DNA of 64,000 bases from an uncultured beta proteobacterium (GTDB lineage: Bacteria > Pseudomonadota > Gammaproteobacteria > Burkholderiales > SG8-41). The position numbers and the translations under genes are program-made. Location: assembly GCA_902825845.1 (NCBI GenBank), contig CADECM010000017.1, positions 3,077-67,076 of the forward strand, given 5' to 3'. Below are positions 4,013-63,264 of this stretch, piece by piece (position 1 is the first letter of the stretch; every line of letters begins with the position of its first letter). The notes under the pieces are model-generated. The model was not told the DNA's origin, did not search any database, and saw nothing but the letters and a program-made list of their open reading frames with translations.

Positions 4013-4540
4013 TTGTAAGTTATTGTTTTTAAACAAATTTTTTTCATGGTGCAGCAGCCCCAGCTCCAGCAGCGCAAACGCGCAGAGCCACAGCGCGGCG
4101 TCCCACGCGTCCATCCAGTCGCCGCGTGCCAGCCACACCAGTGCCAGCGCGCCGAGTCCCGTGTAGAGCAGTGCTGCAGCACGTGCAAATGCCCGCGCAT
4201 GTACGGCTGCGCGCGCCGGCAGCCGCAGCTGAATCTCCAGCACTACCACCACGCCGATCCACAGCAGCAGATTGGCGGCGTCAAGCCATTCCTTTTCCTG
4301 CACATACAGCACCGCCGTGGCGGCGATGGCAAAGGTCGCCAGCGCGCGTACGGCATGCACCAGCGTCAGTGTGCCAGGCCGCCACCGGCCGCGCGTGCCC
4401 TCGAGGGCAAACAGGATCAATAGGGCATACCACGCAAGTGACTCCAGCGCCACGCTGAAGCGCCCGGCGGCCACGTAGTACACAGTGTTGCAGGCAAGCA
4501 GTCCGAGGATGATCGGGCCCGTCAGCCGCCCGCGCGCCAT
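4007..4540 (-). CDS. hypothetical integral membrane protein
   Basis: 177 aa with 5-6 hydrophobic helices. One-nt TGATG overlap with the upstream symporter suggests co-translation. The C-terminal EKNLFKNNNLQS is encoded by AT-rich motif copy S1. Confidence 0.5.
   Translation of the reverse strand: MARGRLTGPIILGLLACNTVYYVAAGRFSVALESLAWYALLILFALEGTRGRWRPGTLTLVHAVRALATFAIAATAVLYVQEKEWLDAANLLLWIGVVVVLEIQLRLPARAAVHARAFARAAALLYTGLGALALVWLARGDWMDAWDAALWLCAFALLELGLLHHEKNLFKNNNLQS
4015..4044 (-). repeat. AT-rich A-tract/IHF-core motif copy S1
   Basis: GTAAGTTATTGTTTTTAAACAAATTTTTTT. Its reverse complement AAAAAAATTTGTTTAAAAACAATAACTTAC has the core AAACAATAACTTA, one mismatch from WATCAANNNNTTR. It sits at convergent gene ends. 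Confidence 0.6.
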
Positions 4541-6060
4541 CAGCGTTCGGGAGGCCTGGCGCCGGGGTGGTGATGTCCGGTCGCCGGCACATGATGGGTG
4601 AGGCTGGAGGCATGCGCATGCGGCGCATGTGTTTCAGGATGCAGGGGCGTGGGACGGCCCACCACCTGCGGCGACAGCGATCCGGCGATCATGCCGGCGC
4701 CGGCGGCGGCGAAACCCAATAGTTGCGGCAGCCACACCTCGTTGTTGGTGCCGAAAAATTCCAGCAAGATCCAGGTGAAAAATCCCGCCGCTATGCCGGT
4801 GAGCGCGCCCTGCGTAGTGGCGCGCTTCCAATACAGGCCGAGGAACAGCGGGAAAAATGCCGACACCAGCGTGATCTTGTAGGCGTTCTCCACCATCTTG
4901 AAAATACTCGCGCTGGTGTTGAGCGCAAATAGCAGCACAATAAGGGTAAAACACACCAGCACCACGCGCATGGTGCGCAGGAACGCGCGGTCGGACATGC
5001 CGGGCCGGATATTGCGGATGATGTTCTCGGAGAATGCCACTGATGGCGCGAGCAGGGTGGCGCTAGAACAGCTCATGATGGCCGATAGCAGCGCGCCAAA
5101 GAACACCACCTGCGCCAGCAGCGGCGTGTGCTGCAGGATCAGCGTCGGCAGCACCAGCTGCGAATCCTTGTCGATCAACGCGGTAAATACCTTCGGATCC
5201 ACCAGCGTGGCGGCGTAGGCGAGAAACATCGGCACGAACGCAAAAAAGAAATAGATCGACCCGCCCAGCACGGAGCCGCGCACCGCGGTTTTCTCGTCCT
5301 TGGCCGAGGTAATGCGCTGAAACACGTCCTGCTGTGGAATCGACCCCAGCATCATGGTGATCCAGGCGCCGATGAAGGGTATCCAGGCGACCGCTTTGGC
5401 CTCCGGGAAAAAGTCCAGCTTGCCGCTGTCGGCCGCGTGCGCCACCACCACGCCCACGCCGCCGGTCATGCCGGCGATCACGTAGCCGATGTAGAGCATG
5501 CCCGCCATGACCACGGTCATCTGGATAAAGTCGAGTATGGCGATCGAAAACATGCCGCCAAAGGTGGTATAGGTGAGCACGATTGCCGCGCCCAGCACCA
5601 TGCCCAGCGGCTGGCTGACCGCGCCGCCGCTCACCACGAAAAACACCAGCCCCAGCGCCTTGATCTGCGCCGACACCCAGCCGAGGTATGACGCCACGAT
5701 CGCCAGCGAACACAGGACTTCCACGGTGCGGTTATAGCGCAGGCGGTAGTAGTCGCCGATGGTGAGCAGGTTCATGCGATACAGCTTGCGGGCAAAAAAC
5801 AACCCGGCAAGGATCAGGCACAAACTGGAACCAAACGGATCGGCGACCACGCCACGCAGCCCCTCTTTGACGAAGGTGGCCGAGATGCCGAGCACCGTTT
5901 CCGCGCCAAACCAGGTGGCGAATACCGTCGCCATCACGATCGGCAGCGGCAAGTGACGGCCGGCAACCGCAAAATCCTTGGCGTTATGTACGCGGGTGGC
6001 GGCGATCAGCCCGATGGCGAGGGAGATCAGCAGATAGGTGACGACAAACCAGATCAGCAT
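4540..6060 (-). CDS. sodium:solute symporter (SSF) family transporter
   Basis: ORF 4540..6117. Likely start at M20 (MLIWFVVTYLL). AVAGRHLPLPIVMATVFATWFGAETVLG is typical of SSF proteins; 13-14 TM helices; His-rich C-terminal tail. Confidence 0.85.
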   Translation of the reverse strand: MLIWFVVTYLLISLAIGLIAATRVHNAKDFAVAGRHLPLPIVMATVFATWFGAETVLGISATFVKEGLRGVVADPFGSSLCLILAGLFFARKLYRMNLLTIGDYYRLRYNRTVEVLCSLAIVASYLGWVSAQIKALGLVFFVVSGGAVSQPLGMVLGAAIVLTYTTFGGMFSIAILDFIQMTVVMAGMLYIGYVIAGMTGGVGVVVAHAADSGKLDFFPEAKAVAWIPFIGAWITMMLGSIPQQDVFQRITSAKDEKTAVRGSVLGGSIYFFFAFVPMFLAYAATLVDPKVFTALIDKDSQLVLPTLILQHTPLLAQVVFFGALLSAIMSCSSATLLAPSVAFSENIIRNIRPGMSDRAFLRTMRVVLVCFTLIVLLFALNTSASIFKMVENAYKITLVSAFFPLFLGLYWKRATTQGALTGIAAGFFTWILLEFFGTNNEVWLPQLLGFAAAGAGMIAGSLSPQVVGRPTPLHPETHAPHAHASSLTHHVPATGHHHPGARPPER

Positions 6061-6191
6061 GGCATGGCAGTGGGAAGAATCGGGTGAAACGTTAAACGGG
6101 TAAGGACGGAAGTGCAACGTCGCGCAGCCGTTGCGGAAGCCCGCGCGAGCGCGGCGATTTCAGGGAATTCTGGCGTTCCAGAGACCAAGGC

Positions 6192-7043
6192 TCAAAAGTC
6201 CTCGCGCACGCGCCAGTAGCTCGCGAAACGCGGCACACCGTTCTTGGTGAGGCCGCGATAGGTGTAGGTGACCTGTGCCCCGATCGGCGGCGGGGTGGCA
6301 CGCACGGCATCGGTAAAACCCGTGCCGATTTGAAATTGCTTGCCATCCGGGGTTTCAACCCGCAGTGCGCCGAGCTTGCCGGCGTATTTGCCCTTGCCTG
6401 CCACGTGGGCGATGACTTTGGCCTCCGCGTCCTCGTGCGGTTTCAGCTTGAGCAGCGCGTCGCTGCGCCCGGTAACATAGGGCGCATCGGTCCGGTGCAG
6501 CATCAGTCCTTCGCCGCCCGCCCGCACAATCTCGGCAAGCTTGCGCCGCAACGCGGCATTGTCGGCGACGTGGAACTGCTCCACGGCCACCAGGTGGGCC
6601 AGATTCGCCTGCGCCACAATGCGTTGAATCTGCTGGTGGCGTTGCGCAAACGTGCCCGGCGTATCGGGCAATTCAAACACCATATATTTGACCTGCCGCC
6701 AGTTGTCGTCCTGTGGCACAGACTTGCGCACGATACCCGACAGTTTTTCGAATTGACCGCGCGCAATCCACAACTCGCCATCCAGCGCCTGTTTCGGCAG
6801 CCCGGCGGTGAACCACCGGGGCGCGGCAATGACATTGCCGGCCCGCGTGCGCAACGTCTGGCCGTCCCACAACCCGCGCACGCCGTCGTATTTTTCACTG
6901 ATCAGGTAGGGCTTCGGATCAATGTCGGCATGGGCAACCTGGGCGAGCAGGGCGTCCGCCGCGGCAGGCGTTCGCGCGTGCGGCTGCGTCAAAAAGGCCA
7001 TGCACAGCGCGAGCGCCAGCAAGCACTCGATTACCTTGGTCAT
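6192..7043 (-). CDS. ATP-dependent DNA ligase, minimal Lig E type with signal peptide
   Basis: Adenylation motif SEKYDGVRG (KxDG), LMLHRTDAPY and LLKLKP, with an OB-fold C-terminus. The N-terminus MTKVIECLLALALCMAFLTQPHA is signal-peptide-like. The track ORF extends to 7349, but that extension overlaps ubiB and is Ala/Gly-rich shadow. Confidence 0.85.
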   Translation of the reverse strand: MTKVIECLLALALCMAFLTQPHARTPAAADALLAQVAHADIDPKPYLISEKYDGVRGLWDGQTLRTRAGNVIAAPRWFTAGLPKQALDGELWIARGQFEKLSGIVRKSVPQDDNWRQVKYMVFELPDTPGTFAQRHQQIQRIVAQANLAHLVAVEQFHVADNAALRRKLAEIVRAGGEGLMLHRTDAPYVTGRSDALLKLKPHEDAEAKVIAHVAGKGKYAGKLGALRVETPDGKQFQIGTGFTDAVRATPPPIGAQVTYTYRGLTKNGVPRFASYWRVREDF

Positions 7044-7063
7044 TGGATGTCTCCTGATTGCCG

Positions 7064-12538: not shown

Positions 12539-12570
12539 TTAAAAAACTATTTAAAATCATATACTTACAT
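12539..12570 (+). repeat. AT-rich A-tract/IHF-core motif copy S2
   Basis: TTAAAAAACTATTTAAAATCATATACTTACAT, in the gap between ubiE and the Tim44-like gene. One mismatch from the IHF core. Confidence 0.6.
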
Positions 12571-15715: not shown

Positions 15716-16132
15716 TTAGGGTCCCATCTGGTGCACCAGACCCTGCCGCAGCTGTTGCAGCAATGCGACGCCCCGCGCCCGCGGCGCAGCAGATGCCTGC
15801 TGGCGCGTTCCCCAGATCGCCTGCGGGAAATGCGCGTCGTCGCGAAAGCGTGCAATCACGTGCCAGTGCAGATGCGGCACAAAATTGCCGAGACTCGCGA
15901 GATTGATTTTATCGGGCTTGAGCAGTGTCCTGAGCAGCGACTCGGCCGCGTATACCGCGCGCATGCAGTGGGCCCGGTCGGCATCGCCGAGGTCCGTCAT
16001 TTCCGCCACGTGTGCATTCCAGATCACCCGGCAATAACCAATGTAGTCGAGCTCGTCGACATAAACCACGCGCAGGTGATCATCCTGCCACAGCACGGTG
16101 TCAGTGCTTGCTTCGCACAAAACGCATTTCAT
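15716..16132 (-). CDS. HIT family hydrolase
   Basis: 138 aa with the histidine triad HLHWHVIARF. Confidence 0.85.
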   Translation of the reverse strand: MKCVLCEASTDTVLWQDDHLRVVYVDELDYIGYCRVIWNAHVAEMTDLGDADRAHCMRAVYAAESLLRTLLKPDKINLASLGNFVPHLHWHVIARFRDDAHFPQAIWGTRQQASAAPRARGVALLQQLRQGLVHQMGP

Positions 16133-16136
16133 GAAT

Positions 16137-16165
16137 ATTCAATAAAATCAATAAGTTATATAATT
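16137..16165 (+). repeat. AT-rich A-tract/IHF-core motif copy S3
   Basis: ATTCAATAAAATCAATAAGTTATATAATT. AATCAATAAGTTA is an exact WATCAANNNNTTR match. It lies in the gap between the HIT and YqaA-like genes. Confidence 0.65.
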
Positions 16166-17321: not shown

Positions 17322-19226
17322 TCATTCGGTGCTGCGCGCGCGGCCGAACAGCAGGGTGATGTTGATGCGGCGGTTTTCGTAACCCGGCTTGAAATGCAGT
17401 TCGTCGGTCACATGGATCAGACTGGAATCGAACATCACGCAGCGGTTTTCGCGGTACGGCACGCGCTGCGCCCTGGCGTCGTGCACTTTCAGGTAGGCCT
17501 GGAGTTTTTCCGGATTGCTGTTGTAGTCGGCGAAGGTCCAGCTTTTCGGAACCGGGTGATTGTAAATCACCATGCCGCCGGTGGCGGGATCCGCGCAGGA
17601 TGCATCGGGCGTGACCCAGAAATTCACATTGACCCTGGCAAAATCGGCGTGCATGGTGATGCCGCGCATGCGCTGATCGTATTTGAAGCCCCACGCCTGC
17701 AGCAGCGCAAAGTCCTGAATCACCCGCGGCATCTTCTGACGCAGTTGGTCGGCGATCGCCAGCAACACCCGCGGCGCGAAACCTTTCACCAGCAGCGCGC
17801 CGGCATAGCCGCCGGGGTTGTACATCTTCCACACCGTGGCTTCTTCGCTGAAACGGCGCAATTCCGCGAGCGCGTCCGCGCTCAGAAACTGGTCGATTAC
17901 CACCAGTTTCTCCGCGGCGTAGCGTTCCTCGAGCGCGGCGTAATCGTTGTTGCCGAGCGCGGCGCCCGCAAACGGCGTGTCGGGACAATAATGCACGTCG
18001 CACAGTGCCTGGCGCAATGCGCCGGCGGCTGGTTCTTCCGGCGCAAAGGTCTGCGTGGTGTCGCGCGACTGCGCGTAATACGGCTTTAACACCTGCAGCG
18101 CCTGCCGGCCGCCGGTATCCAGCTTGCCGCGCCGTTGCAGCAGTTCGAGCTGCTCGTAGTCATGGCGAATGCGCGGTTCCGGGACGGGCCACGGCAGGTG
18201 GCCATAGGCATCACGGTGTTGCACATTCAGATCGAGGCACTGGCGCAGCCGCCGCGCGGCATCGTCCACCTGGCCGCGCCGCAACTGTTCCAGTCCGCGC
18301 AGCAAAATGCAATCGATGTCGGTTGCCATGGCGGCGGCATGCTGAGCGCAAAAAGCCGCCAGCGCCCCGGCGTCCCCGCCGTCAATATACAGTTTCAGCA
18401 ACGCCCGAATCGCCGCCAGTGGCGGCGGCGTCGCGGCAAGCGCGCGCTGATAGGCCGCCATCGCCTGCGCCGCACAGTCCAGCCCGGCATAAGCCAGGCC
18501 GAGCTCGATGTGCAGCTCATGCGGGACCAGGTCCGCCGCCGTCATTGCATCGAAGGCGGCGATGGCCGCGTAGTGGTCCCCCAGCATGTTCTGGCAGCGC
18601 ATGATCTGCAGGGTGGTCGGCGGCGAGCCTTTGTTGATCTGGTTCGCGCACAGCGCGTTGCCCAGCGACTCGTGATAATTCTTGAAGGTGAAATTCGCGT
18701 TGCTCAGTACCATCAGGGCGCGGTAGTTGGCACCGTCCGTCGCCAGCACGGCGCACGCCAGCTGGTAGGCGCGCATCCAGTCGCCGGCCGCCGCCGACAC
18801 TTCGGCCATCACCACAAGCAGAAAGGACTCGCCCACCGGTGGTAGCGGCTGTCTGCACACATGGGCATACGCTTCGTCGATGTGCCCGTTCGTCTGCAGT
18901 ATCATCAGAAAAAACGCTTCGCCGTCCGGACAGATGGCGGGATCGGCAATCGCCCTGCGTCCCAGGCCCAACGCGTCCTGCGCACGGCCTTCGGCCAGCA
19001 GCTTCACCAATGCCGCGCTGCTATCGCGTGCCCACGGCAATGTCCACGCGCGGCTCTGGCAGACAAACACGGCATTATCGATTTCGCCGGCGACGAACAG
19101 GCACACCACCGCTTCAAACGCGTCTTCATCCGAGAGCGGCGGCTGGGGTTTCAGCAATTCGAGCGCGGCCGCTGTCTGGCCCGAGGAACGCAGGCGGTTG
19201 ATTTCGGAATAAACGGTGGAGAGCAT
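17322..19226 (-). CDS. TPR-like helical repeat protein fused to a 2OG-Fe(II) oxygenase-like domain
   Basis: 634 aa. The C-terminal ~200 aa carry ITMHADFARVNVNFWVTPD (HxD) and DSSLIHVTDE...RRINITLLF (distal His, Arg), consistent with the prolyl-hydroxylase-type double-stranded beta-helix. Confidence 0.6.
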   Translation of the reverse strand: MLSTVYSEINRLRSSGQTAAALELLKPQPPLSDEDAFEAVVCLFVAGEIDNAVFVCQSRAWTLPWARDSSAALVKLLAEGRAQDALGLGRRAIADPAICPDGEAFFLMILQTNGHIDEAYAHVCRQPLPPVGESFLLVVMAEVSAAAGDWMRAYQLACAVLATDGANYRALMVLSNANFTFKNYHESLGNALCANQINKGSPPTTLQIMRCQNMLGDHYAAIAAFDAMTAADLVPHELHIELGLAYAGLDCAAQAMAAYQRALAATPPPLAAIRALLKLYIDGGDAGALAAFCAQHAAAMATDIDCILLRGLEQLRRGQVDDAARRLRQCLDLNVQHRDAYGHLPWPVPEPRIRHDYEQLELLQRRGKLDTGGRQALQVLKPYYAQSRDTTQTFAPEEPAAGALRQALCDVHYCPDTPFAGAALGNNDYAALEERYAAEKLVVIDQFLSADALAELRRFSEEATVWKMYNPGGYAGALLVKGFAPRVLLAIADQLRQKMPRVIQDFALLQAWGFKYDQRMRGITMHADFARVNVNFWVTPDASCADPATGGMVIYNHPVPKSWTFADYNSNPEKLQAYLKVHDARAQRVPYRENRCVMFDSSLIHVTDELHFKPGYENRRINITLLFGRARSTE

Positions 19227-19418: not shown

Positions 19419-19452
19419 TTAAAAAATTATTTAAAATCAATAAGTTATGTAC
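19419..19452 (+). repeat. AT-rich A-tract/IHF-core motif copy S4 (best copy)
   Basis: TTAAAAAATTATTTAAAATCAATAAGTTATGTAC: an A6 tract, a ~9-nt spacer and an exact AATCAATAAGTTA. Confidence 0.7.
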
Positions 19453-20804: not shown

Positions 20805-20832
20805 ATAAAGTAAAGTAAAATCAATGACTTAC
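20805..20832 (+). repeat. AT-rich A-tract/IHF-core motif copy S5
   Basis: ATAAAGTAAAGTAAAATCAATGACTTAC with an exact core AATCAATGACTTA. The ATG inside it is the FAH-family start codon (20824). Confidence 0.55.
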
Positions 20833-21513
20833 GCCATAGACTTTCCAGGTATCACGACCCTGCCGGTCGCCGAAAGCCATCAGGCTTTTCCGGTCGGACG
20901 CATTTATTGCGTGGGTCGCAACTATGCCGAGCATGCGCGCGAAATGGGCCACGACCCGGATCGCGAGCCGCCATTTTTCTTCATGAAGCCGCCCGATGCG
21001 ATCGTGATGAGCGGCGCCACCCTGCCGTATCCCACCATCACCCAGGATCTGCATCACGAGATCGAAATGATTGTCGCGATCGGCAAGGGCGGCAGGGATA
21101 TTCCCGTTGAAAAAGCACTGGACCACGTGTTCGGTTACGGCGTCGGACTCGACATGACGCGCCGCGACGTGCAGGGCGAAGCCAAGAAAATGGGCCGGCC
21201 GTGGGAAATGGGCAAGGCGTTCGATGAATCCGCGCCTTGCACCGCGCTCAAGACCGTCGCCATGGTCGGCCATCCCGCCAAGGGCGCGATCACGCTCAAG
21301 GTCAACGGCGTGGTGAAGCAAAAAGGCGATTTGTCCGAAATGATCTGGAACGTGCCGGAAACCATCGCCTATCTGTCGAAGATGATCACGCTGCGTCCCG
21401 GCGACCTCATCATGTCGGGCACGCCGTCCGGCGTCGGTCCGGTGCAGCGCGGCGACAAACTCGAAGGGCACGTGGACGGCGTCGGCGATCTGACCATCAG
21501 CTACGCCCGATAA
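20824..21513 (+). CDS. fumarylacetoacetate hydrolase (FAH) family protein
   Basis: 229 aa with IYCVGRNYAEHAREMG...FFFMKP...HHEIEMIVAIGK...PWEMGKAFD...GTPSGVG. Confidence 0.9.
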   Translation: MTYAIDFPGITTLPVAESHQAFPVGRIYCVGRNYAEHAREMGHDPDREPPFFFMKPPDAIVMSGATLPYPTITQDLHHEIEMIVAIGKGGRDIPVEKALDHVFGYGVGLDMTRRDVQGEAKKMGRPWEMGKAFDESAPCTALKTVAMVGHPAKGAITLKVNGVVKQKGDLSEMIWNVPETIAYLSKMITLRPGDLIMSGTPSGVGPVQRGDKLEGHVDGVGDLTISYAR

Positions 21514-29851: not shown

Positions 29852-29860
29852 AGATCATAT

Positions 29861-29888
29861 ATAAATATTTGATAATAAGAACTTTTTT
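29861..29888 (-). repeat. AT-rich A-tract/IHF-core motif copy S8
   Basis: ATAAATATTTGATAATAAGAACTTTTTT. Its reverse complement contains an exact TATCAAATATTTA. It lies 10 nt upstream of the TPR-GT9 start codon. Confidence 0.5.
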
Positions 29889-30397
29889 ACTTAACCGCGC
29901 ATGCTGGCAGGGCGTCGGGACAGCGCACGATTGGCGCATGTTAATGGAAATTGTTCTGCATATTAGCAGTCGCATGGCGCGATTCTGCAGGCGCGTCTAC
30001 GCATGGGTGTGCGCGCTCGGGAAGTCTTGGTGCTGTGCCGGCGGAGCGCGACCGCACCAATTTTTCCGCGCGTTGCAGGGATGCGGTGCTGAAAATATGC
30101 GCATTTCATACGCGCGCCGTGTCAGCACAACGTTGAGTCGCGCGCCCTGCGCAAACAGCATCGCCCCTGTGCCAAGGTCCACACCACCACCCTTTGTCCG
30201 GCGAAAACGCCTCCGTGCGCGCGGGGGCGCGTGCCGGCTGGCGGCTGCTGCACAGACCGGCCGGCCGGCACCATTTCACACAACACTTACGAGAATTTAT
30301 GCCTAAGCGTAGTGCGCAAATGGCTGGAGTCGATCTACCGCTGATACGTAGTAACGACTTCGATTTACATCAAGTGAGTGATCGCATGCTAGTTGCT

Positions 30398-30428
30398 TAA
30401 CCTATTGAAAATAAATTAATTTTTAACT
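30398..30428 (-). repeat. AT-rich motif copy S9 (porin-1 upstream, distal)
   Basis: TAACCTATTGAAAATAAATTAATTTTTAACT. Confidence 0.5.
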
Positions 30429-43414: not shown

Positions 43415-43480
43415 TTCGCCACACGCGGCACTCGCTGTCAGGCGCCGTATGGCGATGCGGCGCTGCGTTATTACTTTATT

Positions 43481-43511
43481 GTAAGTATATGTTTTTATTT
43501 AGTTTTTATAG
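43481..43511 (-). repeat. AT-rich motif copy S15
   Basis: GTAAGTATATGTTTTTATTTAGTTTTTATAG. Confidence 0.55.
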
Positions 43512-43594: not shown

Positions 43595-43629
43595 ATAAAA
43601 CAACGGAGACCAAACTTCGGTCTCCGTTG
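43595..43629 (-). terminator. rho-independent terminator of the micro-ORF
   Basis: The minus strand reads CAACGGAGACCgaagtttGGTCTCCGTTG followed by TTTTAT. Confidence 0.75.
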
Positions 43630-43646
43630 AGCTAAAGCGACTGCTA

Positions 43647-43709
43647 TTACTTCTTAGCTGCTTTTTTCTTAGCTACTTTTTTCTTTGCTGCTTTTTTCTT
43701 CGCTGCCAT
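43647..43709 (-). CDS. 20-aa Lys/Ala-rich basic micro-peptide (below ORF-track cutoff)
   Basis: Minus strand: AAAGGAGAC RBS, 5 nt, then atg gca gcg aag aaa aaa gca gca aag aaa aaa gta gct aag aaa aaa gca gct aag aag taa = MAAKKKAAKKKVAKKKAAKK. A terminator lies 18 nt downstream. Confidence 0.55.
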   Translation of the reverse strand: MAAKKKAAKKKVAKKKAAKK

Positions 43710-47011: not shown

Positions 47012-47545
47012 TCACTCGGCCAGCGCGTCCACTGCCGCGGCAAGATCGGCAAACACACGGGTCCCCGGCGGCAGGCCGCCATCACGCTGTGTCTTCTTGC
47101 CGTTGCCGGTCAACACCAGCACGGGCTGCGCGCCCACGGCGGCGGCCGCCTGTAAATCGCGCAGACCGTCGCCCACCACCGGCACTGCCGCCATCGGAGT
47201 ATTCAGGCGGTGCGCGATGTCTTCCAGCATGCCGGGTTTGGGCTTGCGGCAGTGGCAATTGTCGGCCGCCGCGTGCGGACAAAAATAGACGGCATCAATA
47301 CGCCCGCCCGCCTGTGCCAGCGCCTTGTGCATCTTGTCGTGGATGGCGTTGAGCGTGGTCATGTCGAAAAAACCGCGGCCAATGCCGGATTGATTGGTGG
47401 CCACAATGACATGAAAGCCCGCCTGATTGAGCCGCGCGATCGCGTTCAGACTGCCGGTGATCGGCCGCCATTCAGCGGGACTCTTGATAAAGGCGTCGCT
47501 GTCATGGTTGATCACGCCATCGCGGTCGAGCACGATCAGTTTCAT
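47012..47545 (-). CDS. gmhB: D-glycero-beta-D-manno-heptose-1,7-bisphosphate 7-phosphatase
   Basis: [18 protein letters not shown], the Zn-site [19 protein letters not shown] and VGDGLRD. Confidence 0.9.
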
Positions 47546-50500
47546 GTGGCGAGTTTCGAGATGTTGACCACCTGATGGGTGAGACTGCCCACTTCATGCA
47601 GCAGTGCAAAACGATTTTCGCGAAGGGCCTGGTCTTCGACGTTGACCATCACTTTGTCGAAGAACTGCGTGACCGGCTGATGCAGTTGCGCGGTACGCAG
47701 CAGGGCCTCGCTGAACTGGCCCTGCGGCAACAGCGCATCGACTTCGGCACGCAGTGCGCGGGCTACGTTAAGTAATTGTTTTTCTTCGATTTCCATGAGG
47801 CGTGCCGTATCGGCCCTGACCACTGTGGCCGCGGTACCCGCCGCGCCGGATTTACTCAGGATATTGCGGATGCGCTTGTCAGCTTCGGCCAGACCTGCCG
47901 ACTCCGGCAGCGCCAGAAATTTGCGCGCGGCGTCGAGACGGCTGACGTACTCAAGTGGCCTGGGTGAAAGATCAAGCACCGACTCCACTTCCAGCGCGGT
48001 GTAGCCCAGCTCGCGCAAATAGCTGCGCGCGCGCTCAGTGACAAACGCTCCGGCTTCAACGGCGTTGGGCACCGCAATACCCTTGCGGTCGTGGCTGTCG
48101 AGCACCGTGCCTTTGGGGAAGGTCCCGTGGGCGAGCTCGAGCAGTTCGCCAAAATGCAGCGGCAATTGGCGTTCCGCCAGTATGCGTATCACCCCCAGCG
48201 CGTGCCGCCGCAATGCAAACGGATCCTTGTCGCCGGTGGGTATGGCGCCGGTGCCGAATATGCCGATGATCGTGTCGAGTTTGTCGGCCAGCGCCACGCA
48301 GCAGGCTTCCTGGCTCTGCGGCAGGCGGTCGCCGGCGAAGCGCGGCAGATAGTGTTCCGCGATGGCATCGGCCACCACTTCCGGCTCGCCATCGTGCCGC
48401 GCGTAGTAGCGGCCCATGATGCCCTGCAGTTCGGGGAACTCGCCGACCATGCCGGTTTGCAAATCGGCTTTGGCGAGCCACGCCGCGCGCTGCGTGTGTT
48501 CAACCCGCAGCGGCTCGGCGCCGATCCGCCGCGCGATCCTGCCGGCAAGCAACTGGATGCGCTCGACGCGCTCCAACTGGCTGCCGAGCTTGTTGTGATA
48601 GACGACTTTGCTCAGGGCCGGCACGCGCGTCTCCAGCCGCGCCTTGCGGTCCTGATCGTAAAAAAACCGCGCATCGGCCAGCCGCGGCCGCACCACGCGC
48701 TGATTGCCTTCGATGATGTTCCTGGGATCGGCCACCTGCATATTGCTGACCACCAGAAACTTTTCCGTGAGCTTGCCGCCGCTGTCAAACAGCGGGAAAT
48801 ACTTCTGGTTGGTGCGCATGGTGAGGATCAGGCACTCCTGCGGCACCGACAGGAATTCCTTTTCGAATCCGGCGGCATAGACCACCGGCCATTCCACCAG
48901 GGCGGTGACTTCGTCGAGCAGGGCCTCGTATTCACCAAGCGTGCAGCCCAGCGCAGAGGCCTTTTCCTTTAGCTGCGCTTCAATTACCGCGCGGCGAGTT
49001 CCAAAGTTGGCGATGACCTTGCCGTCGTCCTTCAGACGCGTCTCGTATTCGCCCGCGTCTTTCAATTCGATATCGCGCGCGCCGAGGAAGCGATGGCCGT
49101 GCGTCCCGCGTCCCGCGGCAAGTCCCAATGCCTGTACGTCGACCACGTCTGCGCCATGCAACGCGACCAGGCCATGCGCGGGGCGCACGAACTTGACCGT
49201 CTCGACGCTGCCGGGCAATTGGTAGCTCATGACTTTGGGTATCGGCAGTCGCGCGATGGCTTTTTCCAGCGCGGCAGACAACGCCGCCTGCAAGGACAGC
49301 CCTGCGGCAAGCTGCGGCAGGAACAACATCACCAGTTTGCCGTCGCTGGCTTTTTTGATCGAGGCTAGCGCCGATTCATCGCGGCCCAGCGCGGCGAGTT
49401 TTTTCAACAACGCCGCGGTCGGTTTGCCCGCGGCGTCGAGGCCGACTTTTTCCGGCAGCAGCCGTTCGTCAATTTGGCGGTCCGGCGCTCTGCCCGGCAC
49501 GCTCGAAAAACGCGCTGCCAGGCGCCGTGGTGTGGCAAACACCTCCAGCCCGCAATCCGCTGCCAGCAAGCCGCTCGCGGTCAGTTCGTCGCGTAAGCCG
49601 TGCGCAAAGGCTTCACCCAGACGCTGCAGCGCCTTGGGCGGCAGTTCTTCGGTAAACAATTCGACCAACAGCGGGGCAACGGTGTCGACGCCTGCCGGCG
49701 CTGCGGCGGCCTCTGGTGTGGGCGCTGGCTTGGCTGCGAGCGCGCGCGGCAGACCTTTGCGTGCCGCCAGTACTTCGTCAATTTCTTCTTTTGAAACAAA
49801 GGCTTGTATTGCCTCCTCTGAGGCGCGCTCAAAGCCGCGCTGCTTGCGAGACTGGTAGTACGACTGCGCCGCCGCGCGCGCCAGCGCCCGCACGCGGCCG
49901 ATGTAGGCAGCGCGCTCGGTTACCGAAATCGCGCCGCGTGCATCCAGCAGATTGAAGCTGTGCGAGCATTTCATCACCATCTCGTAACCGGGCAATGCGA
50001 GGCCGGCTTCAAACAATCGCTTTGCTTCGCCTTCAAACTGGCCGAACTGCAGCAGCAGCATGTCGACGTTGGCCTGCTCGAAGTTGTACGTCGATTGCTC
50101 AACCTCATTCTGGTGATACACATCGCGGTAGGTGACGCCCGGCGCCCACACCAGATCGAAAATGCTTTCCTTTTGCTGCAGGTACATGGCCAGGCGCTCG
50201 ATGCCGTAGGTGATCTCGCCCATCACCGGCCTGCACGGGATGCCGCCGACCTCCTGAAAATAAGTGAACTGCGTGACCTCCATGCCGTTCAACCACACTT
50301 CCCAGCCCAGGCCCCACGCGCCGAGCGTGGGCGATTCCCAGTCGTCCTCGACAAAGCGGATGTCGTGTTCGAGCGGATCGATGCCGATTTCCTTGAGCGA
50401 GCCCAGATACAAATCCAGAATGTTCGCGGGGGAGGGCTTCAGTACCACCTGATACTGGTAATAGTGCTGCAGACGATTCGGATTTTCACCATAGCGGCCG

Positions 50501-50691
50501 TCTTTGGGGCGGCGCGACGGCTGCACGTACGCGGCATTCCACGGCTCCGGGCCGATCGCGCGCAGGAAGGTGGCGGTGTGGAAGGTGCCCGCGCCGACCT
50601 CCATGTCGTATGGCTGCAGCAACGCACAGTGATTGCGGTCCCAATAGTGATTGAGCGCGAGGATCAGTTGCTGAAAGGTTTGCATTGACAA
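47542..50691 (-). CDS. glyQS: glycine--tRNA ligase, alpha and beta subunits fused in one 1049-aa ORF
   Basis: Residues 1-~295 are GlyQ ([39 protein letters not shown]...). A ~50-aa Ala/Pro/Glu linker follows, then the GlyS N-terminus [15 protein letters not shown] through to the end. There is no stop or frameshift between them. ATGA overlap with gmhB. Confidence 0.9.
47768..47794 (-). repeat. AT-rich motif copy S16 embedded in glyS coding sequence
   Basis: TTAAGTAATTGTTTTTCTTCGATTTCC; the coding strand reads gaa atc gaa gaa aaa caa tta ctt aac = EIEEKQLLN. Confidence 0.45.
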
Positions 50692-50758: not shown

Positions 50759-51745
50759 TCAGGGCTGACGCGCCTTGGTGCTGGCGAGCTCGCGCTCCAG
50801 TTGCTCGATGCGCCGCTGCATGACCGACAAGCGCGTATTCAGCGCACCGACGTTGAAGAAGGTTTCGTTGTTCGCGGGCGCGTTGAGCACGGCGGCATAA
50901 CCCAGCCACGAGGGCTCGTATACCTTGACGTTTTTGAAGCCGAGCTTCGACAGTACCACGGCCGTTTCCGAGGCGCGCGTGCCGCTCTGGCAATACACGA
51001 TGGTTTCTTTTTCGGGGTCGAGCGCGGCGTAAAGTTTTTTCAGTTCCTGTCCGGATTTCAATGACATGCCGCTGTTGTCCGCCACCTGTTTGCGCGCGAG
51101 CTTCAACGCGGTGTCGGGGTCCGCCCAGTTCTGCTCATAAGGAATGTTGATTGCACCGGGAATGTGCCCGCCGCGAATGGCGCGGATGTCGTTGCCGCTG
51201 AATTCCGCCACGGTGCGCGCGTCGATGATCTGCACGCCCCGTTTTTGTGCGGCGAGCATTTGCGAGGTATCGATGCCGAGCGACGGATCGGGTGTCAGTT
51301 TCAGCGTCACCGGCGGCAGTCTGGGCGCGTTGGTACTGATGGTCAGCCCGGCACCACGCCAGCCGTCGATGCCGTCGTGATACACATGGCCCTGCGTGCC
51401 GCCGAAATAGCGCAGGCTGTAGAGGCCGAGGTAGGCGCTGGCGTCGCCGCGTGTCGAATACACGATGATTTCTTTCGACGGATCAATGCCCGCCGCGCCC
51501 AGTGCTTTTTCAATCTGCGCAGTCGGCAGGAAGTCTTCAGTGTTCGGATTGCGCAGTGCCCGCGCGATGGCTCCCACACTGACGGCGCCGGGAATGTGGC
51601 CTTTCTGGTAGGCCTCGGCGGCACGCACGTCCCAGATGATCACGCCGCGTTTTTGCGCTTCCAGCACGAACGCGGTATCGACGATGTTGCCCATCGCCCA
51701 TACGGGTAGGCATAAAAAATTTAATAAAAACAGATAGTTACGCAT
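50759..51745 (-). CDS. secreted tandem-rhodanese sulfurtransferase
   Basis: Start MRNYLFLLNFLCLPVWA at 51745 (the track ORF extends to 51847). Two rhodanese domains, active-site loop VYCQSGTRAS and a C-terminal coiled tail. Confidence 0.8.
   Translation of the reverse strand: MRNYLFLLNFLCLPVWAMGNIVDTAFVLEAQKRGVIIWDVRAAEAYQKGHIPGAVSVGAIARALRNPNTEDFLPTAQIEKALGAAGIDPSKEIIVYSTRGDASAYLGLYSLRYFGGTQGHVYHDGIDGWRGAGLTISTNAPRLPPVTLKLTPDPSLGIDTSQMLAAQKRGVQIIDARTVAEFSGNDIRAIRGGHIPGAINIPYEQNWADPDTALKLARKQVADNSGMSLKSGQELKKLYAALDPEKETIVYCQSGTRASETAVVLSKLGFKNVKVYEPSWLGYAAVLNAPANNETFFNVGALNTRLSVMQRRIEQLERELASTKARQP
51713..51741 (+). repeat. AT-rich motif copy S17 overlapping the rhodanese start/signal peptide
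   Basis: TAAAAAATTTAATAAAAACAGATAGTTAC; the coding strand reads cgt aac tat ctg ttt tta tta aat ttt tta. Confidence 0.55.
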
Positions 51746-53467: not shown

Positions 53468-54298
53468 TCAGGCCGTCTTTTTCCTGACCACTTGCAGCAA
53501 ATGCATGCGCCGGCTGTCGGCGCGCAGCACCTTGAACGACAGGTTGTCGAAGCTGATCTGCTCGCCGCGCTTGGGAATGCGGCCAAAGCGCTTGAGCACC
53601 AGGCCGCCGATGGTGTCGAATTCGGCGTCGTCGTAGTTTGTTCCAAAAAATTCATTAAAATCAGATACTTCCGTGAGGGCCTTGACGCGGTACTGGCCGC
53701 CGCGTTCTTCGACGATTTTTTCGTCGATGTCATCGGTGTCGTGCTCATCCTCGATGTCGCCGACGATTTGTTCGAGCACGTCCTCGATCGTCACCAGTCC
53801 GGCCACGCCGCCGTATTCGTCGACCACGATGGCGATGTGATTGCGGTTGACGCGAAATTCCTTGAGCAACACATTCAGCGGTTTGGATTCGGGAATGAAC
53901 ACCGCGGGCCGCAGCATCTCGCGCACATTGAATTCTTCCTCGCCCGCGTAGTAACGCAGCAGATCCTTGGCGAGCAGGATGCCGATCACGTTGTCCTTGT
54001 TGTCGCCGATCACCGGAAAGCGCGAGTGCGCGGTCTGGATCACCCACGGGATAAACTGTGTCGGTGATTCGCCGATGTCGATCACGTCCATTTGCGAGCG
54101 CGGGATCATGATGTCGCGCGCCTGCATTTCCGATACCTGCAGCACGCCTTCGATCATCGCCAGCGCGTCCGCATCGAGCAGGCTGCGCTCGTACGCCGAG
54201 TGCAGCAGCTGCAGCAACTGCTCCCGGTCCTCCGGCTCGCGCATGAGAAATGCGGAGATGCGGTCAAGTACCGAGGGCTTATCGTTGGCGGTGGACAT
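53468..54298 (-). CDS. corC: CBS-pair/CorC_HlyC domain magnesium-cobalt efflux protein
   Basis: 276 aa with a CBS pair (ARDIMIPRSQM...) and a C-terminal transporter-associated domain (FDTIGGLVLKRFGRIPKRGE). Confidence 0.9.
   Translation of the reverse strand: MSTANDKPSVLDRISAFLMREPEDREQLLQLLHSAYERSLLDADALAMIEGVLQVSEMQARDIMIPRSQMDVIDIGESPTQFIPWVIQTAHSRFPVIGDNKDNVIGILLAKDLLRYYAGEEEFNVREMLRPAVFIPESKPLNVLLKEFRVNRNHIAIVVDEYGGVAGLVTIEDVLEQIVGDIEDEHDTDDIDEKIVEERGGQYRVKALTEVSDFNEFFGTNYDDAEFDTIGGLVLKRFGRIPKRGEQISFDNLSFKVLRADSRRMHLLQVVRKKTA
53645..53672 (+). repeat. AT-rich motif copy S18 embedded in-frame in corC
   Basis: AAAAAATTCATTAAAATCAGATACTTCC; the coding strand reads gaa gta tct gat ttt aat gaa ttt ttt gga = EVSDFNEFFG. 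Confidence 0.6.
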
Positions 54299-54807: not shown

Positions 54808-55796
54808 TGCCGCGGTTCATGTTCTGGTGTCGTGGCTTCGGCGCTTTTGCGCGGCTTGCGGCCTTCATAGGCGTTGACAATGCGCTGCACCAGCGGATGG
54901 CGCACCACGTCTTCAGCGCCAAAGTAGGTGAATGCGATGCCGCGCACGGTTTTCAGAATCTCGTGCGCGTCGATGAGCCCGCTTTTTTGCCCGCGTGCGA
55001 GATCGATCTGCGTCACGTCGCCGGTCACCACCACGCGGCTGCCGAAGCCGATGCGCGTCAAAAACATTTTCATCTGTTCGGGCGTGGTGTTCTGCGCTTC
55101 ATCGAGGATCACAAACGCATGGTTCAGCGTGCGCCCGCGCATGAAGGCCAGCGGCGCGACCTCGATCGCGCCGCGCTCGAACATTTTGGCAACGCGGTCG
55201 TAGCCCATCAGATCGTACAGCGCGTCGTACAGCGGGCGCAGGTACGGATCGACCTTTTGCGCCATATCGCCCGGCAAAAAGCCCAGGCGTTCGCCGGCTT
55301 CCACTGCCGGCCGCACCAGCACCAGACGCTTCACTGCATCGCGCTCGAAAGCGTCCACGGCGCAGGCCACCGCGAGATACGTCTTGCCGGTGCCGGCGGG
55401 TCCGATGCCGAAGGTGATGTCGTGGGTCTGGATTTTCTTCAGGTACTCGACCTGATGCGGCGTGCGGCCCTGCAGATCGGCGCGGCGCGTGATCAGCACC
55501 GGTTCGCCGGTTGCGCTGTGCGTGCCGGGCATGTGCGCCGCCTGCACCAGACCCAGCTGCAGGTCCTCGGGATTGAGCGCGTGCGTCGCCTTGCCGTAAA
55601 ACGATTCCAGCACACGCGCGGCGACCCTGGTTTTGTCGGCCGCGCCGGTCACCGTGAAATGTTCGCCGCGGCGCGTGATCGCGACTTCGCAGGCGCTTTC
55701 GATCTGGCGCAGATTCTGGTCGAGTGCGCCGCACAGATTGGCCAGCCGCTGATTGTTGACTGGCGTAAAGCTTATATCCACATTATTGTTTTTCAA
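54804..55796 (-). CDS. phoH: PhoH-family ATPase (YbeZ)
   Basis: Walker [13 protein letters not shown] and [11 protein letters not shown]. It overlaps ybeY by 4 nt. Confidence 0.9.
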
Positions 55797-55802
55797 GTAT
55801 TT

Positions 55803-57152
55803 TCAGCCAACAGCCTGGTTGCTCCCGGTGAGTACACCGCGCAATGAATAGTGCAGCGCTTCGGTAATTGTAACCTCGGTGAAGCGATTGATCAGCGATT
55901 CGTGCCCGTCAAAATTGACCACGCGGTTGTTGTCGGTGCGGCCGGCGAGTTGCTTGTTGCCGTTGCCGGCCCGCCGCGCATGGCCCGTCACCAGCACGCG
56001 TTGACGCGTGCCGACCATCGCGCGGCTGTACCCCTGCGATTGCCCGTCGATGGTGGCCTGCAGGCGCTGCAAGCGCGCGGATTTCTCTGCCTGAGGCAGG
56101 TCATCGGGCAGATTGGCCGCCGGCGTGCCCGGGCGGCGGCTGTAGATAAAACTGAACGCGCCATCGAATTTGATGTCCTCGATCAGGCGCATTGTCGCCT
56201 CGAAATCGTCGGCGGTTTCGCCCGGAAAGCCGACAATGAAGTCGGACGAGATCGAAATTTGCGGGCGCACCGCGCGCAAACGGCGCACGATGGATTTGAA
56301 CTCCAGCGCGGTGTAGCCCCGTTTCATCGCCGCCAGCACGCGATCCGACCCCGCCTGCACCGGCAGATGCACTTGATCGACCAGCGATGGAATTTTGGCG
56401 TAGGCGTCGATCAGCCGCTGTGTGAATTCCTTCGGATGCGAGGTGGTGTAGCGGATGCGTTCGATCCCCGGAATTTCCGCGACATACTCCAGCAGCAGCG
56501 CGAAATCCGCGTCGTCCCCGTCTTCCGTCCGCGCACGGTAGGCGTTGACGTTTTGTCCCAGTAGCGTGATCTCCTGGACGCCCTGCAACGCGAGTTCGGC
56601 CACTTCACCGAGCACGCTGTCGAACGAACGCGACACCTCCTCGCCGCGCGTGTACGGCACCACGCAGAACGCGCAGTATTTGCTGCAACCCTCCATGATC
56701 GACACGAACGCGGCCGCGCCTTCGACACGCGCGGGCGGCAGGTGGTCGAATTTCTCAACTTCCGGAAACGCGATGTCCACCTGCGGCTTGCCGCTCGCGC
56801 GCCGCGCCTCGATCAACTGCGGCAGGCGGTGCAGGGTTTGCGGACCGAAAACCATGTCCACGTACGGCGCGCGCGCGATGATCGCCGCGCCTTCCTGGCT
56901 CGCGACACAGCCGCCGACGCCGATCAGTACATGAGGATTGTCGCGTTTGAATTGGCGCACGCGCCCCAGATCATGAAACACCTTTTCCTGGGCTTTTTCG
57001 CGCACCGAGCAGGTGTTAAACAGAATGACCGCGGCGTCAGCAGGGTTCCCGGTCGGCTCCAGCCCGTGCGCTGCGCGCAGCACGTCCGCCATCTTGTCCG
57101 AGTCATACTCGTTCATCTGGCAGCCGAAGGTCTTGATATAGACTTTCGCCAA
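55803..57152 (-). CDS. miaB: tRNA-i6A37 methylthiotransferase MiaB
   Basis: [16 protein letters not shown], the radical-SAM motif [11 protein letters not shown] and a TRAM C-terminus. The track ORF runs to 57263, but it would overlap the upstream gene; TTG at 57152 ([11 protein letters not shown]) is the probable start. Confidence 0.9.
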
Positions 57153-60359: not shown

Positions 60360-60390
60360 GGTTGCCGCGCTAGGTCCCCGCGGAGGTTGT

Positions 60391-60422
60391 GTAATTTATT
60401 GATTTTAAACAATTGTTTTATG
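60391..60422 (-). repeat. AT-rich motif copy S19
   Basis: GTAATTTATTGATTTTAAACAATTGTTTTATG. Its reverse complement has an exact AATCAATAAATTA. It lies ~60 nt upstream of the tRNA. Confidence 0.65.
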
Positions 60423-60481: not shown

Positions 60482-60558
60482 GGTGATATAGCTCAGGTGG
60501 TTAGAGCGCAGCACTCATAACGCTGAGGTCGGTGGTTCAAATCCACCTATCACCACCA
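60482..60558 (+). tRNA. tRNA-Met (anticodon CAT); tRNA-Ile2(k2C) not excluded
   Basis: Manual cloverleaf: GGTGATA/TATCACC acceptor, GCTC/GAGC D stem, CAGCA-CTCATAA-CGCTG anticodon arm (one A.C mismatch), GGTGG-TTCAAAT-CCACC T arm and an encoded CCA. It is not an initiator (G1-C72, no GGG/CCC stem). Confidence 0.9.
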
Positions 60559-62570: not shown

Positions 62571-62591
62571 CCGTCACGGTGTGAGACGCGC

Positions 62592-63233
62592 GTGCTCGAT
62601 AGCGCACAACGAAGGCTGTTGCCGGCGCTAACGGCTTCGGCGTTGCTGCATGTCTGGCTGGTGCAGACTGGTGACAGCGGCGCCGCGCGGCGCGTAACCC
62701 CCGCGGTCAGCGCGACGATGTCCGCCACGCTGCGTGTGGCGCATTCCGATTTTGGAGAGGCGCATGCGCAAGCGCGGCCCCACGAAGGTCCGCACGAAGC
62801 GCCACAGCCGCGGGAAATAACCGGCGGCGTTGCGGTCGCCGCGCATAGCGCCGCGGTCCGCGCGCGGTTACCGGGGCTTGCGCCTGCGCCGGTGGCAAAA
62901 AGTGCGACCGCCGAGAGCAGTGCCATGCCGGCCGCAGTCAGCGACCCCACCTACTATCCCGCGCTCAGCCTGGATGTGTACCCTCGCGCCCTCACGGCGC
63001 TGGATTTGGGCAGCCGGGCGCAAGCGGGCACGGTGCGCGCAACCGTGCTCATCGACGAAGCCGGCACGGTAAACGATGTGCGGGCGATCGAGGCGGGCGC
63101 CACCGAGGTCGAGAATGCAGCGCGCGAATTGCTGCTGCGCGCGCGCTTTACACCGGCCGCCAAGGATGGCCGCGCGGTCAAGGCACAGTTGCTGGTCAGT
63201 CTGGAGTATCGCGCAGGCGGCGGGCAGAACTAA
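62592..63233 (+). CDS. TonB C-terminal-domain protein
   Basis: GTG start and an N-terminal TM segment. The C-terminus YPRALTALDLGSRAQAGTVRATVLIDEAGTVNDVRAIE...ARFTPAAKDGRAVKAQLLVSLEY has a TonB_C-like fold pattern. Confidence 0.6.
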   Translation: MLDSAQRRLLPALTASALLHVWLVQTGDSGAARRVTPAVSATMSATLRVAHSDFGEAHAQARPHEGPHEAPQPREITGGVAVAAHSAAVRARLPGLAPAPVAKSATAESSAMPAAVSDPTYYPALSLDVYPRALTALDLGSRAQAGTVRATVLIDEAGTVNDVRAIEAGATEVENAARELLLRARFTPAAKDGRAVKAQLLVSLEYRAGGGQN

Positions 63234-63235
63234 TT

Positions 63236-63264
63236 TAAGTATCTGTTTTTAAACAACTTTTTAT
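63236..63264 (-). repeat. AT-rich motif copy S20
   Basis: TAAGTATCTGTTTTTAAACAACTTTTTAT, between the convergent TonB-like and mltA ends. The mltA stop codon lies inside it. Confidence 0.6.

Follow-up and report, generated by a model that had tools for sequence, protein, structure and literature searches.

A dense 27-bp AT-rich motif in a GC-rich betaproteobacterial clade has the form of an integration host factor site

In Escherichia coli, bacterial interspersed mosaic elements (BIMEs) of the RIP/RIB type, i.e., pairs of repetitive extragenic palindromes (REPs), enclose a site for integration host factor (IHF), and the Correia elements of Neisseria contain one. HIP1 (GCGATCGC) of cyanobacteria, an 8-bp GC-rich palindrome linked to methylation, is hugely over-represented and kept in genes by codon choice, and its function is debated. 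Canonical IHF sites combine the elements WATCAA and TTR with two ApA/TpT steps for proline intercalation and an A-tract of 4 to 6 bp in the 5' half, and sites with all four elements are favoured approximately 2,500-fold (PMC1874591). Approximately 1,040 IHF-bound regions have been reported for E. coli (PMC3333857), and BIMEs have been proposed to act as barriers of topological domains (PMC6907758). Here we analyze a dispersed, AT-rich motif in a 64-kb stretch of contig CADECM010000017.1 of an uncultured betaproteobacterium (the whole stretch is referred to as the window). An earlier note, made from the letters of the window, had drawn attention to this motif and had offered three readings, i.e., IHF sites, sites for a dedicated DNA-binding protein or an uptake signal.

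The window has a GC content of 62-63% and carries core chromosomal genes of betaproteobacterial type. A sequence logo of 42 aligned copies, taken from the window and five related loci (see below), revealed an asymmetric unit of 27 bp that reads A1-6, T8, T11-12, A13-16, W17, C18, A19, A20, A23, S24, T25, T26 and A27. Near-invariant positions are C18, A19, T25 and T26, together with the A-tracts; A was found at positions 1 to 5 in 76-90% of the 42 copies and at position 6 in 67%. The informative positions are broken by W, S and N positions (7, 9, 10, 17, 21, 22 and 24), and there is no contiguous invariant core. Information drops to background right outside the 27 bp, i.e., the flanks are random and no larger repeat unit is present. 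These sharp edges, as well as the invariant C18, A19, T25 and T26, are independent of AT-richness.

As a reference we used AAAAAAGCATTGCTTATCAATTTGTTG, the lambda H' site of the 1IHF duplex. H' (A6-N8-TATCAA-N4-TTG) and the motif show the same register and spacing, such that the A-tract, the TpT step, C18-A19-A20 and T25-T26-R27 coincide, and H' scores 18.6 with the window position weight matrix (PWM), i.e., within the top 0.1% of window positions. The IHF elements of the motif are an A-tract of 5-6 bp (positions 1-6), TpT (10-12), WATCAA (15-20, with the CAA step 9 bp from TpT) and TTR (25-27). Judged by sequence register alone, the conserved T at 11-12 (often also at 10) and C18-A19-A20 fall on the kink positions of H'. 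The earlier note had described an IHF-type core with an A-tract one helical turn upstream as in lambda H'; the spacing is indeed the same, and TTT at positions 10-12 coincides with the second proline-kink step of the canonical site. Conservation beyond the IHF core, which the note had also claimed, was observed as well, except that its TTTAAAA part is accounted for by the fourth IHF element (PMC1874591).

Exact matches to the IHF consensus WATCAANNNNTTR numbered 10 in the window as compared to 0.65 ± 0.86 in dinucleotide shuffles, and a count of 10 was reached in none of 100 shuffles. As local AT-rich islands could inflate such counts, the window was also reshuffled inside blocks of 30, 60 and 200 bp, which keeps the local AT content. 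Under these block shuffles, overrepresentation persisted for WATCAANNNNTTR (10 observed versus 0.5-0.7), for AAAWCANNNNNTTA (15 observed versus 0.3-0.45) and for the longer form AAAAWCANNNASTTA (10 observed versus 0.0-0.03). Most of the copies that are not exact matches to WATCAANNNNTTR deviate solely by an A in place of the T at position 17. Overall, the window contains approximately 15 strong copies and approximately 8 weaker or core-only ones, located on both strands at a density of approximately one copy per 3-4 kb, and the density is similar in 103 kb of relatives. Moreover, 22 stretches of the window have at least 80% A+T over 30 bp, and approximately 19 of these hold a copy or partial copy (by inspection against the PWM scan).

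These counts bear on several claims of the earlier note. All eight strong copies that it had listed were recovered at the positions given there, and its count of at least 10 exact consensus matches with fewer than one expected by chance and its view that nearly all sharp AT-rich spikes represent the motif agree with the data above. In the AT-preserving and dinucleotide-shuffled controls that it had proposed (run here on the window), the density of the motif exceeded that of the shuffles. Its total of at least 20 copies is reached if weak copies are included, and is not reached by the strong copies alone. Among its weak candidates, 15694 and 22555 represent cores without an A-tract and 30578 is a moderate copy, while no copy is present at 12664.

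For comparison with other lineages, 80 PhoH-centred loci were taken from betaproteobacterial genomes (top PhoH identity 77%), and a search of metagenomes with CorC yielded many relatives with 85-96% identity. Five syntenic 20-kb lineages (L081, L082-84, L085, L086 and L087; CorC 86-91% identical; 103 kb) formed the clade sample, 61 loci (945 kb) formed the GC-rich outgroup sample, and 50 kb of E. coli MG1655 were used as density control. PWM scores above 28 bits were obtained for 13 copies in the window and for 2-6 copies per 20-kb locus in the five related lineages, as compared to none in the 945 kb of GC-rich outgroup loci. The strict consensus occurred with a frequency of 15.6 per 100 kb in the window, 10.7 in the clade and 0.6 in the GC-rich outgroups (6 observed versus 3.65 expected), i.e., the motif is approximately 25 times as dense as in the other GC-rich betaproteobacterial loci sampled. 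Middle- and low-GC outgroups showed an enrichment of the strict consensus of just approximately 2-fold, and in the 50 kb of E. coli it was found at chance level (1 observed versus 1.15 expected). The extended form AAWCAANNASTTA was enriched in the clade (13 observed versus 0.15 expected) and in the window (8 versus 0.05) and showed no enrichment in the outgroups.

Single matching sites were also found in distant betaproteobacteria. A metagenome scan with the Tim44-like protein yielded 9 loci, including one close relative, which is very short, and distant relatives. In three loci of approximately 50% GC (L088:426-455, L091:1119-1148 and L093:4131-4160; Tim44-like protein 36-47% identical), a matching site is present between ubiE and the gene for the Tim44-like protein, oriented like the window copy at 12541 and followed in each locus by a TATAAT-like box; this site may thus be ancient. 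Overall, the site type is generic, and its abundance and perfection are specific to the clade. The view of the earlier note that the motif behaves as a specific signal is supported, and is strengthened by the orthologous conservation and codon-level selection described below, but with regard to abundance it is specific to a clade (five lineages) rather than to one genome.

The check for conservation at orthologous positions, which the earlier note had proposed, found such copies in the five syntenic lineages, i.e., inside corC and glyS, at the miaB/phoH junction, upstream of tRNA-Met and beside a decarboxylase gene. The copy beside the decarboxylase gene (43479) has a counterpart at the orthologous position in L081, L082, L085 and L087. 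At intergenic orthologous sites (with sequences extracted anchored on the motif), the motif persists and the flanks are unalignable. Inside corC, where the motif lies antisense to the gene, the clade has the codons GAA GTA TCT GAT TTT AAT GAA TTT TTT (TEVSDFNEFF) as compared to a typical GAG ATC GCC GAC TTC AAC GAG GCC TTC in outgroups (40 compared); given the amino acids, the clade codons have a probability of 6 × 10-6. Inside glyS, where the motif lies in the sense orientation, the clade has GAA GAA AAA CAA TTA CTT (EEKQLL) as compared to a typical GCC GAG AAG GCG CTG CAC in outgroups (probability of codons given amino acids, 3 × 10-5). Three codons used in these copies are rare in the window, i.e., TTA (1.8% of Leu), GTA (6.7% of Val) and TCT (2.3% of Ser).

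When the copies in corC and glyS were aligned by codon to 30-40 outgroups, no indels were found. Because of the rare codons, the amino acid replacements and the absence of indels, these copies must have arisen by substitution, including replacement of amino acids, and as they are kept across species, the alignments indicate that they are held by selection on the DNA rather than having been brought in by a mobile insertion or reflecting a translational effect. Since L085 and L087 are without the copies in corC and glyS, sites do turn over.

The copies of the window are listed here with coordinates, strand and context (PWM scores in bits).

4013-4042, minus strand: strong copy AAAAATTTGTTTAAAAACAATAACTTACAA at the junction of two poorly resolved open reading frames (ORFs), 3056-4012 (plus) and 4007-4540 (minus); PWM 39.0.
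12541-12570, plus strand: strong intergenic copy, with the ubiE stop (12583) on one side and the Tim44-like gene (true ATG near 12470) on the other; PWM 38.3.
16132-16161, plus strand: copy abutting the start codon of a HIT-family gene (15716-16132, minus); PWM 31.4, exact WATCAANNNNTTR core at 16146-16158.
19421-19450, plus strand: strong intergenic copy approximately 195 bp upstream of a 634-aa TPR-like gene (17322-19226, minus); PWM 39.6, exact core at 19435-19447.
20805-20834, plus strand: copy in a divergent intergenic region, overlapping the ATG (20824) of an FAA-hydrolase gene; PWM 26.5, exact core at 20819-20831.
22556-22568, minus strand: weak, core-only candidate AATCAATAACTTG inside the coding sequence of a GT61 glycosyltransferase, without an A-tract.
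25882-25911, plus strand: copy inside the coding sequence of an aldo/keto reductase (Pfam), read in the frame E-N-I-N-K-N-K-D-L-I as derived from coordinates; PWM 29.8.
28381-28410, minus strand: weaker copy inside the coding sequence of a TPR protein (27860-29851, minus); PWM 21.4.
29859-29888, minus strand: copy 8 bp upstream of the start codon of this TPR protein, in the sense orientation; PWM 32.0, exact core at 29862-29874.
30395-30424, minus strand: copy upstream of porin 1; PWM 28.2.
30488-30517, plus strand: copy upstream of porin 1, approximately 230 bp before the ATG, with core AATCAACTACTTA at 30502-30514.
30572-30601, minus strand: moderate copy upstream of porin 1 (the 30578 candidate of the earlier note); PWM 25.1.
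32538-32567, minus strand: moderate copy upstream of porin 2, with C18, A19, A20 and TTA present and positions 13-16 other than AAAA; PWM 27.5.
32631-32660, plus strand: copy upstream of porin 2, paralogous to the 30502 core; core at 32645-32657.
34608-34637, minus strand: strong copy upstream of porin 3; PWM 36.4, exact core at 34611-34623.
34678-34707, plus strand: copy upstream of porin 3, paralogous to those at 30502 and 32645; core at 34692-34704.
43479-43508, minus strand: strong copy between the end of the anti-sigma gene (43414) and a small Lys-rich ORF by the Orn/DAP decarboxylase gene; PWM 36.7.
47766-47795, minus strand: copy inside glyS (GAA GAA AAA CAA TTA CTT, EEKQLL), kept in L081, L082-84 and L086.
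51714-51743, plus strand: copy at the junction of lnt and the rhodanese-domain gene, over putative N-terminal codons (MRNYLFLLNFL..., start read by eye); PWM 33.4.
53645-53674, plus strand: copy inside corC, antisense to the gene, kept in L081, L082-84 and L086.
55776-55805, minus strand: degenerate copy between the miaB stop and the phoH start, without TTA in the window; a proper site is present in L086, L087 and L082.
60389-60418, minus strand: strong copy 22 nt upstream of the tRNA-Met promoter.
63233-63262, minus strand: strong copy that exactly fills the 27-bp gap between the convergent stops of a TonB-C gene (ends at 63233) and mltA (ends at 63261); PWM 36.8.

Copies favour gene boundaries and are mostly located in very short intergenic spacers, while 4 to 8 of them lie inside or overlap coding sequences. 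The preference for gene boundaries, as put forward in the earlier note, can be seen in the copy that occupies the gap between convergent stops (63233), in three copies that abut starts (16132, 20805 and 29859) and in the copy at 12541, which fills most of the spacer between ubiE and the Tim44-like gene. The genes of the window include ubiB-ubiJ-(Tim44-like)-ubiE, followed by a block of TPR, glycosyltransferase and methyltransferase genes, three tandem Porin_4 genes (in a stretch with 54% GC), mgtE, a pair of genes for an extracytoplasmic function (ECF) sigma factor and its anti-sigma factor, and the decarboxylase gene. They further include glyQS, the rhodanese-domain gene, lnt, corC, ybeY, phoH, miaB, a histidine kinase with a LuxR-type regulator, a ubiH-like gene, dsbC, a tonB-like gene and mltA. 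Searches with NCBIfam were uninformative for the poorly resolved ORFs around 3-4.5 kb and 16-20 kb.

Approximately 10 copies are on the plus strand and approximately 11 on the minus strand, while the cumulative GC skew of the window rises almost throughout, and copies are sense or antisense to local genes in about equal numbers. A stable fold was not found in six copies that were examined for hairpins together with 10-nt flanks (-0.8 to -2.3 kcal/mol; z-scores from -1.6 to +1.3). As the copies occur on both strands, in sense and antisense, and do not fold, the motif appears to be read on double-stranded DNA, and neither on RNA nor in an orientation tied to replication. A replication-oriented signal of the Chi or KOPS/FtsK type was thus ruled out by the lack of strand bias, and a hairpin, terminator or REP structure by the lack of folding. 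The reverse-complemented motif was also compared by eye with the Tus Ter site and with OmpR boxes, but a likeness was dismissed, given the copy number, the occurrence in both orientations and the poor alignment.

E. coli IHF regulates ompF and ompC. In the window, a motif core approximately 230 bp upstream of the ATG is kept in all three paralogous porin leaders, which also have further copies. These leaders (30440-30745, 32585-32886 and 34640-34948) share a near-palindromic box ATACGTAATATGTGTTGCGTAT as well as a highly conserved, structured-looking 5' untranslated region (CCTTTAC...GTAAGGCGAAGCGCTCGCGAGGA...), which suggests that the porin paralogues are under common transcriptional and post-transcriptional control.

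Further observations concern the surroundings of single copies. Next to the copy at 43479, a 20-codon ORF (43647-43709, minus strand) with a strong AAGGAG ribosome-binding site encodes MAAKKKAAKKKVAKKKAAKK, which may represent a tiny basic, perhaps nucleic-acid-binding, peptide; a terminator-like hairpin (43603-43632) lies downstream of this ORF, and L084, L085 and L086 also have small ORF calls at this location. The glyQ and glyS domains form one ORF of 1049 aa in the window (47542-50691, minus strand), where relatives have two overlapping genes (314 and approximately 705 aa); this represents either a gene fusion or a frame error of the assembly. In L081 (167-3081; GCA_043743335.1), a restriction-modification pair (MvaI/BcnI-type endonuclease and C5 methylase) is inserted beside the conserved block of histidine kinase, response regulator and miaB, and the small gene between endonuclease and methylase has a motif copy (1773) at its 5' end. 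An Rfam search of the window yielded one tRNA only; a second tRNA called by ARAGORN (41717-41815) lies inside mgtE, has a 4-base anticodon and is probably spurious.

A scan of IMG/VR with AAAAANNNNTTTAAAAWCANNNASTTA found the same site type in at least 120 stretches of viral contigs, of which, among the matches listed, most have 30-45% GC. At positions that the search pattern leaves free, the 123 unique viral copies among the matches listed have A20 in 94%, T17 in 75%, C24 in 89% and C8 in 74%; A20 and T17 are the bases demanded by the IHF consensus. The viral form of the site reads AAAAAnCCTTTAAAATCAAnrACTTA (loci L097-L216, e.g., L172:4688-7468, L109:938-3340, L132:1891-2978, L130 and L140). 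All copies are on one strand in 13 of the 14 multi-copy viral loci among the matches listed. In L172 and L109, a GC-rich hairpin is found on one side of the site and a TTGACA-N17-TAnnnT promoter on the other, an arrangement that looks like a reusable cassette of terminator, IHF site and promoter; the GC-rich hairpin of viral loci sometimes carries a partial inverted copy of the site. A BLAST search of the motif-rich viral locus L172 against cultured phages gave no match. The site type is thus used by phages of quite different, lower-GC hosts, and its occurrence in low-GC viral contigs favours a widely conserved host factor over a receptor or regulator private to the clade. Together with the presence in distant betaproteobacteria, this breadth narrows the three readings of the earlier note: it favours an IHF-like host factor and disfavours an uptake sequence.

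From the sequence evidence, we consider it probable (approx. 0.6) that the motif represents high-affinity sites for IHF or a close DNABII relative, which would be kept at approximately one per 3-4 kb as fixed bending points, with some of them recruited into promoter architecture. Under this explanation, the IHF of the clade (a DNABII heterodimer) or a close relative would bind each 27-bp site, insert two proline tips at the two kink steps and clamp the narrow minor groove of the A-tract, which would turn the DNA by approximately 160 degrees into a U-turn. Because the sites lie every 3-4 kb, they could organise the nucleoid by bending or anchoring it at fixed points, and copies next to promoters (i.e., in the porin leaders, at tRNA-Met and at an internal promoter of the ubi operon) may also shape promoter architecture. 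Selection for such a bending role would hold AT-rich sites against the GC-rich background, even in coding sequence.

Several points weigh against this explanation. The evidence comes from 64 kb and five loci of one syntenic region, such that "genome-wide" is an extrapolation, and the PWM was trained on the same copies that it scored, which makes the information content of the logo partly circular. A tblastn search with IhfA, IhfB and HupA of E. coli gave no match in the 64-kb window or in any fetched locus. The motif also departs from the E. coli IHF consensus, as A17 is as frequent as T17 and as A23 and S24 are strongly conserved within its "NNNN". Although IHF is near-universal in Proteobacteria, neither the GC-rich sister lineages nor the E. 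coli sample show such an enrichment, and IHF alone does not explain why the clade accumulates perfect sites. Given the conserved A23 and S24, the A at position 17 and the lack of enrichment of the extended form in outgroups, either the specificity of the binder differs somewhat from that of E. coli IHF or another protein is involved.

This other protein could be a different sequence-specific DNA-binding protein, e.g., a nucleoid protein of the clade, an additional DNABII paralogue or a global regulator, with a partial likeness of its site to that of IHF. The departures of A23, S24 and the tolerated A17 from WATCAANNNNTTR, the enrichment of AAWCAANNASTTA in clade and window only and the clade-specific abundance in spite of the near-universal IHF would all fit such a protein. 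We nevertheless regard it as unlikely, as none of the four IHF elements is missing and their register is correct, as many low-GC viral contigs of other hosts have the same site type with IHF-consensus bases at free positions, and as the motif is asymmetric, with none of the dyad or direct-repeat half-sites that are typical of regulators (by inspection).

The copies could also represent UP-like elements of promoters, or AT-rich relics of former promoters and terminators, and would then be a signal for transcription rather than for architecture. The A-tract end of the copy at 12541 is located 9 nt from a promoter-like TTGACC...TATAAT, and for the copy at 60389 the distance to the downstream TTGACA-N17-GACAAT promoter of tRNA-Met (60482-60558, plus strand) is 22 nt; the tRNA-Met arrangement, with the motif upstream at a conserved distance, is also found in L085 (6561-6637) and L086 (2676-2752). 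Moreover, several copies abut start codons, and strong sigma-70-like promoters within 45 nt of the viral copies mostly face away from the site on either side (16 and 18 of 121 copies among the matches listed, as compared to 3 and 3 with a promoter facing it). Across the clade, on the other hand, the logo has no conserved flank position and hence no fixed -35 or -10 element, and on none of four tests of side and direction did more than 2 of 39 clade copies show a good sigma-70-like promoter within 45 nt. Sigma-54 promoters showed no association (34 matches versus 47 expected), and hairpins are absent. Copies between convergent stops, as well as those in corC and glyS in either orientation, are likewise not expected of promoter elements, and the UP-element consensus has no features of the type of the invariant C18, A19, T25 and T26. 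This explanation thus appears very doubtful.

A DNA uptake sequence, spread by biased uptake and recombination in the manner of the uptake signal sequences (USS) of Pasteurellaceae or the DNA uptake sequences (DUS) of Neisseriaceae, seems slightly more doubtful still. Uptake sequences typically number hundreds to thousands per genome, at approximately one per 1-2 kb and on both strands. Phased A/T tracts also flank the USS core of Haemophilus, which speaks for this reading. The high density, the occurrence in both orientations, the intergenic and (through changes of codons and amino acids) intragenic placement and the conservation in close relatives only are hallmarks of uptake sequences (PMC2817400). 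However, in place of a near-invariant core of 9 to 12 bases, the motif has a degenerate sequence whose W, S and N positions resemble shape readout, and it matches the site of a known intracellular protein base for base. It also clusters in regulatory regions (two or three copies per porin leader), keeps the same location ahead of the tRNA-Met promoter in three lineages, and is no private dialect, given the same site type in low-GC viral contigs and distant betaproteobacteria. The proportion of copies in coding sequences (approximately 1/5, as compared to 35-65% for USS and DUS; PMC2817400) points the same way, although weakly, as an AT-rich motif fits GC-rich coding sequence poorly. Spread by insertion as a miniature mobile repeat of the REP, MITE (miniature inverted-repeat transposable element) or Correia type is extremely improbable: the motif is dispersed, short, mostly intergenic and lineage-specific as such repeats are, but it has no terminal inverted repeats, palindrome, stable fold, conserved flanks or larger unit, its degeneracy is at positions expected from protein contact rather than being a uniform decay, and a mobile origin is contradicted by the indel-free codon alignments of the copies in corC and glyS.

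With regard to significance, most IHF-bound regions of E. coli have degenerate motifs, and the strict consensus is unenriched in the 50-kb sample; architectural and regulatory roles of IHF are therefore hard to separate there. The clade studied here appears to write near-perfect sites at regular density and to pay for them with rare codons and amino acid changes across species. If IHF binds these sites, the clade would represent a natural experiment on sequence-encoded nucleoid architecture, with a clean set of sites for fixed bending points; if it does not, the motif would mark a new genome-wide system of DNA recognition. A more far-reaching proposal, which we consider improbable, is that the motif goes beyond ordinary regulatory IHF sites and that near-perfect bending sites every few kb, also in coding sequence, form a clade-wide code of "self" or of architecture. 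In its boldest version, this would be a third, independently evolved family of uptake or self-recognition sequences that builds on a bendable IHF-like site; in a more modest version, it would be a scaffold of DNABII anchor points, kept by selection, that sets chromosome folding. In practice, the motif provides a sharp signature for recognising contigs of this uncultured clade.

A literature search for the literal motif strings retrieved no papers; the closest described systems share part of its properties. Canonical IHF sites, such as H' of lambda attP, have the same four elements in register, are asymmetric and without secondary structure, and occur in either orientation and sometimes near promoters. 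The motif differs from them by a density approximately 25 times that of the GC-rich sister lineages sampled, an unusually uniform quality of copies, A23/S24, A or T at position 17 and the presence of intragenic copies. Its frequency of approximately one per 3-4 kb is comparable to the density of IHF-bound regions in E. coli, but the E. coli sample was unenriched for the strict consensus. RIP/BIME and Correia elements, like the motif, supply dispersed, mostly extragenic IHF-type sites at gene ends or between convergent genes, and a role in the nucleoid or in topological domains has been proposed for them; the window site, however, stands alone, without REP palindromes, inverted repeats or a mobile body, and is also found inside genes. 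USS and DUS are likewise lineage-restricted, over-represented short motifs that occur on both strands and enter coding sequence through codon and amino acid choice (PMC2817400), whereas the core of the window motif is degenerate, has the sequence of the site of an intracellular protein, clusters in regulatory regions and is found in unrelated low-GC viral contigs. Finally, HIP1 and the window motif are both abundant in a lineage and maintained through codons, but the window motif is a 27-bp, asymmetric, AT-rich sequence of IHF type.

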